Shown here: piece by piece, positions 3-26,340 of the stretch
Position numbering within the stretch: position 1 is the first letter of the stretch
Layout of the letters: every line of letters starts with the position of its first letter
Source: Gemmatimonadales bacterium
Lineage (GTDB): Bacteria; Gemmatimonadota; Gemmatimonadetes; Gemmatimonadales; GWC2-71-9
NCBI GenBank assembly: GCA_013813875.1
Contig: JACCQZ010000065.1
Coordinates: forward strand, 1-54,855
Length of the DNA stretch: 54,855 nt
Reading direction: 5' to 3'
Made by a program: the position numbers and the translations under genes
Notes under the pieces: generated by a model
Told to the model about the DNA's origin: nothing
What the model saw: only the letters and a program-made list of their open reading frames with translations
Database searches by the model: none

Positions 3-182
3 GTCACCCTGATCCTCATCGGCCTCCTGCTCTGGTCCGGCAGTCTCTCCTGGTTCGGGCGGCTCCCCGGCGACATCCGGATCGAACGGGACTCGTTCCA
101 GATCTTCGTCCCCCTCGTCTCCATGATCGTGGTGTCGGTGGTCATCAGCCTGGTGCTGTATCTGATGAAGCGATATCTCTGA
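3..182 (+). CDS. DUF2905-family small membrane protein, C-terminal part (5' end outside window)
   Basis: Frame is open from the window edge. It translates ...WFGRLPGDIRIERDSFQIFVPLVSMIVVSVVISLVLYLMKRYL*, with TGA at 180-182. The RLPGDI motif plus a terminal TM helix is typical of DUF2905. Confidence 0.6.
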   Translation, partial: VTLILIGLLLWSGSLSWFGRLPGDIRIERDSFQIFVPLVSMIVVSVVISLVLYLMKRYL

Positions 183-239
183 AGGTCGAAGGTCGAAAGT
201 CGAAGGTCTGGAGACCCTAGCCTGCGACCTTCGACCTTC
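181..239. repeat. Heptamer-array hairpin A: GAAGGTC GAAGGTC GAAAGTC GAAGGTC, 17-nt spacer, GACCTTC GACCTTC
   Basis: Read directly. Units lie at 181-187, 188-194, 195-201 and 202-208; reverse-complement units lie at 226-232 and 233-239. The element overlaps the DUF2905 stop codon and precedes the DUF4112 gene. Confidence 0.85.
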
Positions 240-264
240 TTCAGCATGTGCTTACCTTGCATCC

Positions 265-771
265 ATGAGCCCAACCCACCTCTCCCGCCAGCCCGCTCCC
301 GAAGTAGGCACCCTCGACCCGCACAGACTGGAGCGGCTGCGCCAGTTGGGGCACCTGCTCGACAACTCGATTCCCATTCCAGGAACCCGATTTCGGGTGG
401 GCCTGGACGCCATCATCGGGCTGGTGCCGGGAGTCGGAGACTTGGTGGGGGGCGCGCTCTCGCTCTACATCGTCATGCAGGCCGCTCGCTTGGGAGTTCC
501 CCGTCCGCTGCTCGCTCGGATGGGCTGGAACGTCGCGGTGGAGACCGTGGTGGGAGCAATCCCGCTGTTCGGCGATCTGTTCGACGCCGGCTACAAGGCC
601 AACCTGCGGAACCTCGCCCTCATCCAGCAGCAGGTAGACCAGCCGGTAAAATCCAAACGCGCCAGCGTGCGCTTTGCCGCGCTGCTGGCTGTCGGACTGC
701 TCCTTCTTCTCGCCGGAGCCGTGGCGCTGGGCGTGGTGCTGGTGAGACTCCTGAGTCAGCCGGTGCTGTGA
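265..771 (+). CDS. DUF4112 domain-containing membrane protein
   Basis: 168-aa ORF with GLDAIIGLVPGVGDLVGGALSLYIV...IPLFGDLFDAGYKANLRN, the DUF4112 signature. C-terminal hydrophobic helix. Confidence 0.75.
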   Translation: MSPTHLSRQPAPEVGTLDPHRLERLRQLGHLLDNSIPIPGTRFRVGLDAIIGLVPGVGDLVGGALSLYIVMQAARLGVPRPLLARMGWNVAVETVVGAIPLFGDLFDAGYKANLRNLALIQQQVDQPVKSKRASVRFAALLAVGLLLLLAGAVALGVVLVRLLSQPVL

Positions 772-23842: not shown

Positions 23843-23962
23843 ACGCCGCGCCAGGCCGCCAGCGGCGCTGGCGCGGGGCCATCCGGGCGTCTAACATTTG
23901 GCCGCCCGCCTGCCCGCGACCTTCGCGACGGCACCGGAGTCTCGGAGGAGCCACTGAACCTG

Positions 23963-26200
23963 ATGGAACGTTTCGCCCGTGCGCTGGTGCGCGGGCGATG
24001 GGCGATACTCGTCGTGTGGGCGGTGATCGGCGGATTCGCGGCGGTCCGGGCGCCGGCAACGCCGGCGCTCCTCGACATTCGAGGAGGCAGCGAGCGCGAG
24101 ACCGAAGCCTCGCGCAACGAGGATCTGCTGGAGACCCGGTTCAGCCGACCCATAGGCGAATTCTTCGCGGTGGCGCTGCAGGGTCCGGGCTCGTTCGAGT
24201 CCTCCCGCCCCAGAGTGGTCCTGGACAGCCTTCTCGCCGCGCTCGAGCGGCAACCCTACGTGCGCGGCCTGGTGTCATTTCCCGCCACCGGCGACACCAC
24301 CTTCCTCAGCCGGGACCGGCGCTCGACTTTTATCATCGTGGCGCTGAACGTCACCGAGGGCGACACGGCGGGCGCGCTGGTGCAGCCGGTGCGCTCGCTG
24401 GTTCAGCGCTCGCTTGGCACCCATCCCGACGGAGGGCAGTATCGGGCGCTAGTCACCGGCCGGGCGCCGCTCGACCTGGACGTGAGAAGAGTCATAACCG
24501 AAGACAGCGCCACCGGAGAGCGGCGATTGCTGCCGCTGACGCTCGTCGTCCTGGTGCTCGCCTTCGGGGCGCTGGTGGCGGCCCTGCTCCCGCTCCTCGT
24601 CGGTATGCTGGCGATCGCGGTCTCGCTCACGATCATCGGCCTCCTGACGCAGGTTACGCCGATGTCAATCTTCGTGCTCAACATGACCACGATGATCGGT
24701 CTCGGCGTGGGCATTGACTACTCCCTGCTCGTGGTCACCCGCTTCCGGGAGGAATTGGCTCGCGGGCTCCGGCGGCAGGACGCCGCGGTGAGCACGATGA
24801 CGACCGCGGGGCGCGCGGTCATCACCTCCGGCGTCACCGTGATAGTCGGGTTCGGGGCGCTGCTGTTTACTCCCCTCATCGAGACCCGGAGTGTCGGTCT
24901 GGGCGGGCTCATCGTAGTCGGGGTGGCGGTGTTGCTCTCGATCACTCTGCTCCCTGCCCTGCTCGCGGTGCTGGGGCGGGAGATTGACCGCCCCCGATGG
25001 ATGGCGCGGCGGCTCACCTGGTATCACGCCCCCCAGATCTGGGAGAAGTGGGCCAGGACGCTGAGCCGCCACCCGCTACGGGCAATGGCGTACGGGGGGC
25101 TGGTGATCGCCATGCTCACGGCGCCGGTGTTCTGGATCCGAATCGGCCTTCCCTCCCGGCACTGGTGGCCCAGCGACACCGAGGCGGGGGCCGGCCTCGA
25201 CGCCCTCTCCCGCATGGGAGTGGCGGGGTTCGTTCAGCCGGTTCGGGTGCTGGTGGAGGTGCCAGCCGGCCGCACCGCGGTGCAAGCCGCGTCGCTCCGA
25301 GGACTGCGGGTGCTCTCCGACTCGCTGAGGGCCGACGCACGGGTGCGCGAGGTGCGGAGCATCGTGGATCTCGAGCCGGGCACGTCGCTGCTGGCACTCT
25401 CGGTGCTGTACAGCGATCTGGAGGCAGCGAGAGCGCGATATCCCAGCTTTCTCGATGCCTATCTCAGCACCGACCGGCGGCTAACACTGCTCGACGTGAT
25501 TCTGGCCGATACCACCTCGCTCACCTCGGCGATGGACGTCGTCATCCGGGCGCGGCAACTGGGACAGGCCGAGCTTCGCGGCACCCGGGGAATGCGCGTT
25601 ACCGTGGGCGGCTACTCTGCCGCGGCGCTGGATTTCCAGGAAGACCTCCTCGACCGATTCCCGCTGCTGGTGGCGCTCATCCTCGGCGCGACCGGCATCA
25701 TGCTCGCCATCGCATTCCGATCGGTGCTGGTGCCGATCAAGGCCATCATCATGAATACGTTGTCGGTGAGCGCCACTTTCGGGCTGATCGTGCTGGTCTT
25801 TCAGTTTGGAGTGGGAGCGGAGCTGTTCGGGCTGGACGGGCCGACGTCGGCGATCTTCGTGGTGATCCCGGTGCTGGTGTTCGCGGTCGTGTTCGGGCTC
25901 AGCATGGACTACGAGGTGTTCCTGCTGAGCCGGATCAAAGAGGCGTACGACCGGACCGGCCGCAACGCGGAAGCCACCATGGAGGGACTCAGCGCCACCG
26001 CCTCGGTGATCACCTCGGCGGCGCTCATCATGATCCTGGTGTTCGGGATCTTCGCCTTTGCCCGGGTGCTCCCGATGCAGCTCCTCGGCTTCGGACTGGC
26101 CGCGGCCGTACTGCTCGACGCCACCGTGATCCGCATGGTGCTGGTGCCGGCGTTCATGCAGGCGATGGGGCGATGGAACTGGTGGCCGGGGAGAAGATAG
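23963..26200 (+). CDS. MMPL family (RND superfamily) transporter
   Basis: 745 aa with two blocks of ~6 TM helices. GIDYSLLVVTRFREEL and GLSMDYEVFLLSRIKEAY are MMPL signatures. Confidence 0.85.
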   Translation: MERFARALVRGRWAILVVWAVIGGFAAVRAPATPALLDIRGGSERETEASRNEDLLETRFSRPIGEFFAVALQGPGSFESSRPRVVLDSLLAALERQPYVRGLVSFPATGDTTFLSRDRRSTFIIVALNVTEGDTAGALVQPVRSLVQRSLGTHPDGGQYRALVTGRAPLDLDVRRVITEDSATGERRLLPLTLVVLVLAFGALVAALLPLLVGMLAIAVSLTIIGLLTQVTPMSIFVLNMTTMIGLGVGIDYSLLVVTRFREELARGLRRQDAAVSTMTTAGRAVITSGVTVIVGFGALLFTPLIETRSVGLGGLIVVGVAVLLSITLLPALLAVLGREIDRPRWMARRLTWYHAPQIWEKWARTLSRHPLRAMAYGGLVIAMLTAPVFWIRIGLPSRHWWPSDTEAGAGLDALSRMGVAGFVQPVRVLVEVPAGRTAVQAASLRGLRVLSDSLRADARVREVRSIVDLEPGTSLLALSVLYSDLEAARARYPSFLDAYLSTDRRLTLLDVILADTTSLTSAMDVVIRARQLGQAELRGTRGMRVTVGGYSAAALDFQEDLLDRFPLLVALILGATGIMLAIAFRSVLVPIKAIIMNTLSVSATFGLIVLVFQFGVGAELFGLDGPTSAIFVVIPVLVFAVVFGLSMDYEVFLLSRIKEAYDRTGRNAEATMEGLSATASVITSAALIMILVFGIFAFARVLPMQLLGFGLAAAVLLDATVIRMVLVPAFMQAMGRWNWWPGRR

Positions 26201-26340
26201 TAGAAAGTAGAAAGTAGAAAGTAGAAAGTAGAAAGTAAAAAGTGACAAGGATCGCCTTCGCGTTCCCTTTGACCTTTGACCTTTCCCCTTTCCCCTTTCC
26301 CCTTTCCCCTTTCCCCTTTCCACTTTCACCTTTCCCCTAC
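26198..26340. repeat. Heptamer-array hairpin F: (TAGAAAG)x5 ... (CCCCTTT)x5 with degenerate flanking units
   Basis: Left: perfect units at 26201-26235, then TAAAAAG and TGACAAG. Right: GACCTTT x2 (26271-26284), CCCCTTT x5 (26285-26319), then CCACTTT and CACCTTT. It fills the whole gap between the MMPL stop (26200) and the polA stop (26337). Confidence 0.85.

Follow-up and report, generated by a model that had tools for sequence, protein, structure and literature searches.

Results

Six gene boundaries carry hairpins with tandem-repeat arms

We analyzed a stretch of 54,855 nucleotides from a metagenome-assembled genome (MAG) of a Gemmatimonadales bacterium (NCBI assembly GCA_013813875.1, contig JACCQZ010000065.1, forward strand). 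This stretch represents ~55 kb of the genome and is called the window below. Six gene boundaries in the window, at genes that include polA, the suf operon and a hydrolase gene, carry an element in which an array of tandem 7-nt units is paired with an array of the reverse complement. A sequence-only reading of the window had proposed these six elements, A to F, and all six are present (Table 1).

Table 1. Inverted tandem-array elements in the window, and in-frame arrays in the polA genes of related loci
Feature	Position	Arms	Neighboring genes	Difference in other assemblies of the species
A	181..239	left 181-208, (GAAGGTC)x4 with one GAAAGTC; right 221-239, (GACCTTC)x2.7	DUF2905 (stop TGA 180-182 inside first unit) and DUF4112 (start 265), co-directional	GCA_051004595.1: +7 nt at 220; GCA_020063705.1: identical
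C	3679..3783	left 3679-3710, (AGTGACA)x4.6; right 3751-3783, (CACTTGT)x4.6	acyltransferase and NIF3, convergent	GCA_051004595.1: +7 nt left arm (3689), -7 nt right arm (3777)
B	15128..15194	left 15129-15162, GAAGGTC/GAAAGTC alternating; right 15169-15194, GACCTTC-type; loop 8 nt	sufB and sufC, inside suf operon; sense strand minus	identical in four other assemblies
D	18540..18680	outer left 18540-18581, GGCTATC-type; outer right 18644-18678, GCCGATA/GCTGACA-type	ferredoxin and hydrolase, convergent; left arm begins on ferredoxin stop TAG 18541-18543	GCA_051004595.1: +14 nt right arm at 18643
D, inner core	18597-18626	perfect 12-bp hairpin, GACCCTCCCTGA/TCAGGGAGGGTC		
E	20008..20174	left 20026-20046, right 20110-20148, GGCTATC/GATAGCC-type	hydrolase (ATG 20024, minus) and small conserved ORF upstream of RNase D (ATG 20158, plus), divergent	GCA_051004595.1: +14 nt left arm at 20032
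F	26195..26338	left 26195-26243, (AGAAAGT)x7; right 26265-26338, (CCCTTTC)x10.6	MMPL (stop 26200) and polA (stop 26337), convergent	GCA_030858245.1: -7 nt left arm, -21 nt right arm
polA linker array, locus L023	6676-6786	in frame, 111 nt		
polA linker array, locus L024	10917-10997	in frame, 81 nt		
polA linker array, locus L053	3431-3514	in frame, 84 nt		

Such arrays are far more frequent than simulated sequence would yield. Tandem Repeats Finder (TRF) reported 10 period-7 arrays, and there are 12 arms overall, compared to 0.67 arrays per simulated window and a maximum of three in 200 first-order Markov simulations. Period-7 arrays of at least 2.6 copies occurred at the six loci only; the other period-7 row reported by TRF was a 2.1-copy match at 41767-41781. 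An inverted-repeat scan found an inverted partner for every period-7 array at the six loci. The range of two to seven units per arm that was first described is too narrow for F, as its right arm in Table 1 shows. The arms of D and E also follow a 14-nt higher-order period (GCCGATA/GCTGAYA). Those of F are complementary at only 5/7 positions on the plus strand; on the minus strand, where G-U pairs contribute, the figure is 6/7. Read in the sense of polA (minus strand, 26265-26338), the right arm of F is (GGGGAAA)n, a canonical G-quadruplex motif and the sole such potential among the six elements.

The elements lie hard against coding sequence. The left arm of C codes for the final ~8 acyltransferase codons and the stop (3701-3703), the NIF3 stop (3789) lies 6 nt beyond the end of the right arm, and the two arms enclose an inner GGTGC...GCACC hairpin. 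Element B follows the sufB stop (15196) by 1 nt and precedes sufC, whose Shine-Dalgarno sequence and GTG start (15110) lie ~14 nt downstream of it. This GTG is most likely the true start of sufC, which public annotation gives as a 251-aa protein, and with this start B falls in the gap that separates the sufB stop from the Shine-Dalgarno sequence of sufC. An exact-protein look-up found no match for the TTG-start form of SufC or for the hydrolase. In the inverted-repeat scan, the palindrome at E reaches past the heptamers to 20008-20174 and covers both divergent start codons; its loop contains the conserved motif TAGATATACTA (20073-20083). Contact with stop or start codons had been claimed for all six elements. 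The claim fails at the right arm of D, because a conserved non-coding stretch of ~135 nt intervenes before the hydrolase stop.

Each element folds as a single long hairpin on either strand, which answers the check on both strands that the sequence-only reading had called for. The stems span 15-50 bp and the RNA folds have z-scores of -3 to -11. Element A folds at -34.6 kcal/mol on the plus strand and -38.8 kcal/mol on the minus strand (z -4.6/-5.8), C at -62.9/-66.2 kcal/mol (z about -7), D at -98.1 kcal/mol (z -11), and F at -40.7 kcal/mol on the plus strand and -60.6 kcal/mol on the minus strand. The DNA folds of all six are as non-random as the RNA folds.

These hairpins are not classical intrinsic terminators, in line with the sequence-only reading. 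A terminator scan of window positions 1-20000, which covers A to D, reported no element, and direct reading found no T-run after any arm of the six. U-tract terminators were not enriched in the first 20 kb (5 found, 9.8 expected from shuffles). A promoter and terminator consensus scan of 1-20 kb found nothing within the arms and no sigma-70-like hexamer pair in any arm. We had considered the repeat units as carriers of -35-like hexamers, and we dropped this idea when the consensus scan gave no support. An Rfam scan of the whole window at gathering thresholds returned 0 matches, and an E-value scan around D and E returned chance-level matches only (E ≥0.8).

Array lengths differ by whole units between strains

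We retrieved contigs of the same species from other assemblies by exact-protein look-up. GCA_051004595.1 is 99.2-99.4% identical to the window over positions 1-20088, and GCA_030858245.1, which carries a PolA identical to that of the window, is 99.4% identical over 23779-31916. Eight multi-base indels distinguish these sequences over ~28 kb. Seven of them, each a multiple of 7 in length, fall within arrays that total ~640 nt, and the remaining one is a difference of 211 nt at 8269-8480, where no ORF is present. Whole-unit indels confined to the arrays are classic slipped-strand behavior. The length changes affect one arm at a time, so the arms do not grow in step with each other. Whole-unit changes between strains that are >99% identical were thus seen in five of the six elements, which supports the view of the elements as dynamic. 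The exception was B, for which we could make the strain-level comparison only, as no fetched cross-species locus spans the sufB-sufC junction. These results demonstrate that the arrays are hypervariable in the manner of micro- or minisatellites.

The architecture is conserved across Gemmatimonadales

We compared the window to related loci (given L numbers here) by assembling three sets of sequences and applying TRF to all fetched loci. The comparison set contained 43 Gemmatimonadales polA loci and the window (775 kb in total), the outgroup set contained 17 loci from other phyla (301 kb), and the replication set contained 487 kb of soil metagenome contigs selected via the hydrolase. Relatives of the window PolA at 57-84% identity came from Gemmatimonadales or Gemmatimonadota without exception. 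Genes in the related loci were called with our own codon-usage caller, which was trained on the fetched loci and agrees with the Pfam-confirmed genes of the window.

The Gemmatimonadales set contained 36 elements, whereas the other phyla contained none. Inverted array pairs no more than 200 nt apart numbered 19 at period 7, six at period 8, and one each at periods 3, 4, 9 and 10 in Gemmatimonadales. The other phyla had no inverted pairs at period 7, 8 or 10; their sole match was a period-9 pair in L037 that departs from complementarity at 3/9 positions. We also counted the arrays that have a reverse-complement array within 250 nt. In the 775-kb set, partners were found for 0/11 arrays of period 5, 2/48 of period 6, 41/71 of period 7, 15/47 of period 8, 2/61 of period 9 and 4/14 of period 10. 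The corresponding fractions in the soil metagenome contigs were 0/7, 0/17, 10/30, 9/19, 12/39 and 0/4. Because periods 8-10 are also partnered, the defining trait is a hairpin arm built of tandem 7-10-mers. The strict 7-nt period described earlier holds in the window and is local to this region of the genome; orthologous sites elsewhere in the lineage also show periods of 8, 9 and 10 nt. Not all non-coding arrays of Gemmatimonadales are inverted. Direct, unpaired arrays include (GTTCCGCC)x5 upstream of polA in L012 (about 2990-3020) and a 27-nt direct repeat downstream of the hydrolase in L084.

Unit sequences vary by locus and by species, and the exact units of the window hardly occur in 1.2 Mb of related loci. 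The family is defined by architecture and not by sequence. The scan of related loci thus upheld the description of a family with conserved architecture and variable sequence. The units had also been thought to be related to one another. They resemble one another slightly more than shuffles of matched composition do (mean minimal distance 2.77 vs 2.93 +/- 0.04; aligned information 6.2 vs 5.15 +/- 0.2 bits), a likeness that is inflated by orthologues and paralogues; the specific chain proposed from GTCGAAA through GTAGAAA to GTGACAA is plausible and weakly supported.

Elements favor gaps between convergent genes

We examined where the 36 elements lie relative to genes. Fourteen are between convergent genes, 15 between co-directional genes, four between divergent genes and three inside polA. 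Convergent sites account for 42% of the elements, compared to a baseline of 13-21% (p = 0.004 to 2e-5), and 14/64 convergent gaps of at least 50 nt hold an element. Divergent sites account for 12% of the elements and 36% of intergenic bases (p = 0.002). The preference for gene ends, which the sequence-only reading had put forward as a check, was therefore found as an enrichment between convergent genes. Of the 33 intergenic elements, the majority are no more than ~20 nt from a stop codon. Most nearly fill their intergenic gap, and their first or last unit overlaps the stop codon.

The three elements inside polA (Table 1) are inverted arrays of 7- or 8-mers with lengths that are multiples of 3, and they fold at -61 to -91 kcal/mol. 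They lie in the linker between PolA domains; when we looked there for empty sites as a sign of insertion, the linker proved to be hypervariable in all species. Such hairpins are thus tolerated within a translated essential gene. The arrays are largely confined to non-coding DNA or to this tolerant protein linker, and they favor convergent gaps.

Arms turn over around conserved cores

Orthologous junctions allowed us to compare the arms with the sequence that they enclose. The core of the D site, GACCCTCC...GGAGGGTC, is common to the window, L070, L071, L080, L088 and L089, and L096 and L100 have forms close to it. The outer arms at this site are GGCTATT/AATAGCC in L070 and L089, CCAGTCG in L062 and L065, GGTAAGC in L069 and L076, GAGAAGC in L101, 8-mers in L066, 9-mers in L090, and absent elsewhere. 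Both arms changed in concert between the window (GGCTATC/GATAGCC) and L070 and L089. The E site behaves in the same way. Its motif TAGTATATCTA, which lies at 20073-20083 in the center of the divergent hydrolase/RNase D region and reads TGTAGTATATCTAG in relatives, is conserved across species (L073, L077, L084, L087, L088, L096, L098, L100 and L102) with differing arms of 7-, 8- or 9-mers of various sequence. This motif looks like a promoter or operator. Repeats downstream of polA have period 7, have period 10 or are absent, and at least eight different units occur upstream. The comparison shows arrays surrounding older cores that are conserved among orthologues, a terminator-like inner hairpin at D and a promoter- or operator-like motif at E.

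The palindrome at E extends over both start codons in the lineage of the window only. There the small ORF begins with MPPST, compared to MKP(A/P/Q)T in its orthologues, and mirrors the MPPHP of the hydrolase. A mirrored start of this kind is the expected product of hairpin-templated (intra-strand) conversion. Arms have also come to resemble each other at different loci. The right arms of D and E are identical at 34/36 nt while their loops are unrelated, A and B have the two unit variants in common, and a unit class is shared by 20% of same-genome pairs and 8% of pairs between genomes (p = 0.044). The likeness of these arms agrees with the paralogous copies seen by the sequence-only reading. 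Propagation of the REP/MITE type, its further suggestion, does not fit: conserved termini and target duplications are both absent, the loops bear no relation to one another, and variable arms surround orthologous cores. The shared arms suggest occasional copying between loci and not transposition of whole elements.

Two conserved sequences lie next to these elements. The ~135-nt non-coding element directly after the hydrolase stop (18681-18813, minus strand) starts with GAAACCUUU and ends in a 13-bp hairpin with the conserved loop CGCGGCCAAGCAGUWCG. Most of the 46 orthologous metagenome loci contain it, and it has no Rfam match. A U-rich tail (CCUUUCUUU) follows in most orthologues and not in the window. 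The element is a candidate 3'-UTR element or small RNA with a classical terminator. The small ORF next to E (20158-20328, plus strand; MPPSTDYIRHAARLARKLQMD...) has an N-terminus that is conserved in all orthologous loci. It lies upstream of the RNase D domain in a frame that differs from that of the 20325 start, and it may represent a small protein of its own, a frameshift or a start codon that was set wrongly.

Other features of the window and related loci

A non-periodic palindrome with 27-bp arms (TGTCAYSCTGAGCGNAGCGARG...) at 50191-50257 is conserved in sequence across species at differing gene boundaries, and also occurs upstream of polA in L012 and L015. It forms a REP-like family of its own. 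Upstream of polA and the hydrolase in related loci (e.g. L009, L013, L028 and L061), a -10-like box (TATCTT, TATTAT or TATAAT) lies 6-9 nt before the ATG, and TANNNT starts show a peak at -15 to -12, in ~15% of those genes whose upstream gap is 40 nt or longer. These boxes suggest that leaderless transcripts are frequent alongside Shine-Dalgarno-led genes in the related loci.

Between parA and gidA/mnmG lies a purine-rich, ORF-less stretch of ~960 nt (7611-8574) with a 19-nt tandem repeat at 8033-8088. Its segment at 8269-8480 is 211 nt shorter in the strain that is 99% identical to the window. Beside parAB, parS-like palindromes (TGTTTCACGTGAAA) at 7746-7761 and 8587-8600 bracket the ORF-less region, which places the window in an origin-proximal partition region. 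A DnaA-box search of the ORF-less region near parAB gave chance-level hits and no cluster, and a tRNA/tmRNA scan detected none.

Discussion

A proposed slippage-driven origin with a probable role at transcript ends

The elements are real, non-random and lineage-wide, though not categorically new. We favor, by slightly better than an even chance, the interpretation that they are gene-boundary hairpins with slippage-driven tandem-repeat arms, kept roughly complementary by conversion and/or selection, and that they probably serve as transcript-end or intercistronic hairpins. The arrays would arise, and change in size, when replication slips at hairpin-forming DNA. Hairpin-templated conversion (intra-strand template switching), selection for pairing, or both would hold the arms roughly complementary, and ectopic conversion would occasionally copy arms between loci of one genome. 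In RNA, the stems of 20-50 bp would form hairpins at transcript 3' ends or between cistrons, with a stem length that is tunable by unit number. They might act through U-tract-independent termination or pausing, through protection against 3' exonucleases, or through RNase III processing. A function of this kind is plausible but unproven on the sequence evidence.

Several observations weigh against this interpretation. The arms change independently between strains and those of F are complementary at only 5-6 of 7 positions, so pairing is not tightly maintained. No hairpin is present at several convergent gene pairs of the window, the stops of which overlap or lie a few bases apart. The three in-frame elements in polA and the position of E in a divergent promoter region rule out termination as their general function. 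The sense strand of co-directional elements is not consistently the better folder (eight sense, six antisense, one tie); there is thus no G-U signature of RNA-level selection, and we take the large strand asymmetry of F as a single case. The proposed RNA role is accordingly tentative and weakly supported. Slippage alone explains neither the preference for 7-10-nt units nor the richness of this order, as opposed to others, in such arrays, and the codon-usage caller behind the gene calls in related loci is crude.

A purely neutral origin is a strong rival, although on balance we find it rather unlikely. A lineage-specific bias in replication or repair would produce inverted tandem arrays in unconstrained sequence, where they would be tolerated at gene ends and have no function. 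The independent variation of arms among near-identical strains is what such a bias would leave, as are the differences between species in presence, unit and period at the same junction, the elements in the hypervariable polA linker, the absent strand asymmetry and the bare convergent junctions of the window. Depletion from divergent regions could likewise reflect the intolerance of promoters alone. Neutrality accounts less well for periodic arms that are kept at the same sites across ~25-30% protein divergence despite turnover of their units, or for the concerted, compensatory change in both arms at D. It also does not anticipate that 14 of the 64 larger convergent gaps carry an element, or that B is invariant in five assemblies when the other five elements vary.

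We regard as improbable the bolder proposal that Gemmatimonadales have a dedicated, lineage-specific process by which periodic stems are added to existing hairpins and altered in length, symmetrically on both sides. Its products would be contingency-locus "VNTR hairpins" (with a variable number of tandem repeats) that act via RNA or DNA structure, and the number of units, varying from cell to cell, would determine how far neighboring genes are read through, how long their mRNA lasts or how active their promoters are. The candidates for such a process would be a hairpin-provoked cycle of template switching or repair, or an unknown enzyme.

Mobility of whole elements is doubtful. On this account the elements would be mobile palindromes of the REPIN, MITE (a miniature inverted-repeat transposable element) or Rickettsia palindromic element type, copied by a trans-acting transposase such as RAYT. 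Near-identical arms at different loci (D/E and A/B) are suggestive of such copying, and units are shared within genomes. Hairpin pairs with the same unit flank single genes (the hydrolase in the window, polA in L052 and L055). Rickettsia palindromic elements occur in frame inside genes, as do the polA linker elements. The GTAG or CGTC tag of repetitive extragenic palindromic (REP) sequences is recognized by RAYT transposases, and GTAG is present in the unit of F and at the start of D. REP superfamilies with a GTAG or CGTC tag at one end are described in PMC3733652. The details of the elements run against transposition. Loops and cores of paralogues are unrelated, yet they are conserved among orthologues while the arms vary; termini are not conserved and target sites are not duplicated; and unit sequences differ between most loci, with the exact window units almost absent from the 1.2 Mb of related loci. 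Length changes are multiples of the unit within arms, not gains or losses of whole elements, and a Pfam scan of 40 window proteins found no transposase.

Action at the level of DNA is the least likely of the alternatives: protein-binding or promoter-associated arrays, or non-B structures (cruciform, G-quadruplex or i-motif), would affect initiation, supercoiling or replication, but units this diverse do not suit one sequence-specific binder, most of them (GAAGGTC, GACAAGT, GGCTATC) have no G-tracts, no arm in the first 20 kb holds a sigma-70-like hexamer pair, and the elements are enriched at promoterless convergent ends and depleted in divergent regions. The points in its favor are local. Element E brackets a promoter- or operator-like motif and gives both divergent genes the same upstream sequence, many genes have a -10-like box 6-9 nt before the ATG, which puts the right arms of co-directional elements at about the -35 position, and all six elements fold as DNA. 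The polA-sense arm of F is a textbook G-quadruplex motif, and the G-quadruplex reading fits this arm only. Heptamer repeats in Nostoc do alter promoter output (bioRxiv 10.1101/2022.06.06.494920).

Relationship to known repeats

A literature search on repeats or palindromes of Gemmatimonadetes and Gemmatimonas found no relevant report. The sequence-only reading knew of no named family with these properties. That holds for Rfam, where nothing matched, and it does not hold for the literature, where a similar kind has been published. The closest published analogue is the set of inverted GGGAATC heptamer pairs in Xanthomonas. Each genome has ~185 GGGAATC arrays of 2-26 copies, including 70-75 inverted pairs able to form stem-loops (Rehm et al. 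2015, PMC4692102). The arrays are 89-93% intergenic and lie nearer the 3' end of the upstream ORF; related species differ in array length but keep the type, single or inverted; and they are interpreted as formers of G-quadruplexes or i-motifs (PMC4692102). Paired 7-nt arrays on opposite strands characterize all six window elements and the 19 period-7 pairs in 775 kb, these too are mainly intergenic near the 3' end of the upstream ORF (33/36 intergenic), and close relatives differ in the repeat number of A, C, D, E and F. Unlike Xanthomonas, with one G-rich unit family per genome (GGGAATC/GGGANTN), Gemmatimonadales have many units that look unrelated, most of them unable to form G-quadruplexes, and only the (GGGGAAA)n arm of F has G-tracts. 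Periods of 8-10 nt, arms around conserved cores, the different phylum and the whole-unit polymorphism at strain level shown here are further differences. What is new relative to the published kind is the combination of multiple units per genome, 7-10-nt periods, arms around conserved cores and strain-level hypervariability.

Other heptamer repeats are more distant. STRRs (repetitive sequences that are short and tandemly repeated) of heterocyst-forming cyanobacteria have the units CCCCAGT, TTGGTCA and CAACAGT, and Vioque is said to have described in 1997 that they lengthen a helix of RNase P RNA. STRR heptamers appear in a title cited in PMC2858038. TAACTGA heptamers occur in Beggiatoaceae and Microcystis, with one inverted pair in BOGUAY (PMC4679880); Nostoc has promoter-proximal heptamers (bioRxiv 10.1101/2022.06.06.494920) and few inverted heptamer pairs (PMC4692102). 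Like the Gemmatimonadales elements, these are tandem heptanucleotides, mostly intergenic, with several unit types per genome. Unlike them, they are mostly direct arrays of other units in low-GC cyanobacteria or gammaproteobacteria, often just upstream of starts. The elements are not STRRs: the host belongs to Gemmatimonadales and the STRR units do not match.

REP sequences have been proposed to stabilize upstream mRNA, attenuate transcription or bind proteins. REP, BIME and REPIN elements of Proteobacteria are also extragenic palindromes at gene ends and inside operons, and inverted REP doublets form long hairpins. They differ in being conserved in sequence, in their hundreds of copies with a GTAG/CGTC tag and a cognate RAYT, and in stems that are not tandem repeats and do not vary in unit number. 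Within the 55-kb window only the A/B and D/E arms are alike, and their loops are unrelated. MITEs are equally distinct, because the elements have no flanking duplications, their internal sequences are unrelated and orthologously conserved, and their differences are unit indels within arms.

Hairpins without U-tracts, termed "I-shaped," have been reported in high-GC bacteria. The elements share with intrinsic and I-shaped terminators a stable hairpin directly after the stop, often common to convergent genes. They do not have the short GC-rich stem, 3-8-nt loop and U-tract of an intrinsic terminator; their stems are 2-5 times longer and periodic, and they also occur in a promoter region and within an ORF. 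With contingency loci and long simple sequence repeats (SSRs) they share over-represented heptamers, slippage-driven indels and strain-level variability. A classical contingency locus turns a gene on and off through one direct array in a promoter or ORF, whereas the paired, inverted arrays described here alter a stem. As cited in PMC4679880 and PMC4692102, heptamers are over-represented among long bacterial SSRs, and polymerase slippage was proposed as the cause (Mrazek et al. 2007).

Implications

The elements call for care in annotation because they overlap stops and starts, supply C-terminal codons (element C) and occur inside ORFs (the polA linker). If the hairpins set transcript ends or stability, a change in unit length would provide heritable and reversible tuning of the expression of housekeeping genes, such as polA, the suf operon and RNase D. 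This tuning would work via structure, not via promoters or reading frames. To our knowledge, structure-based tuning by unit-length change has not been shown in bacteria. Even if the elements are neutral, they represent an order-wide mutational signature, the growth of palindromes by tandem units of 7-10 nt, and they would be convenient markers for typing strains of uncultured soil Gemmatimonadales.

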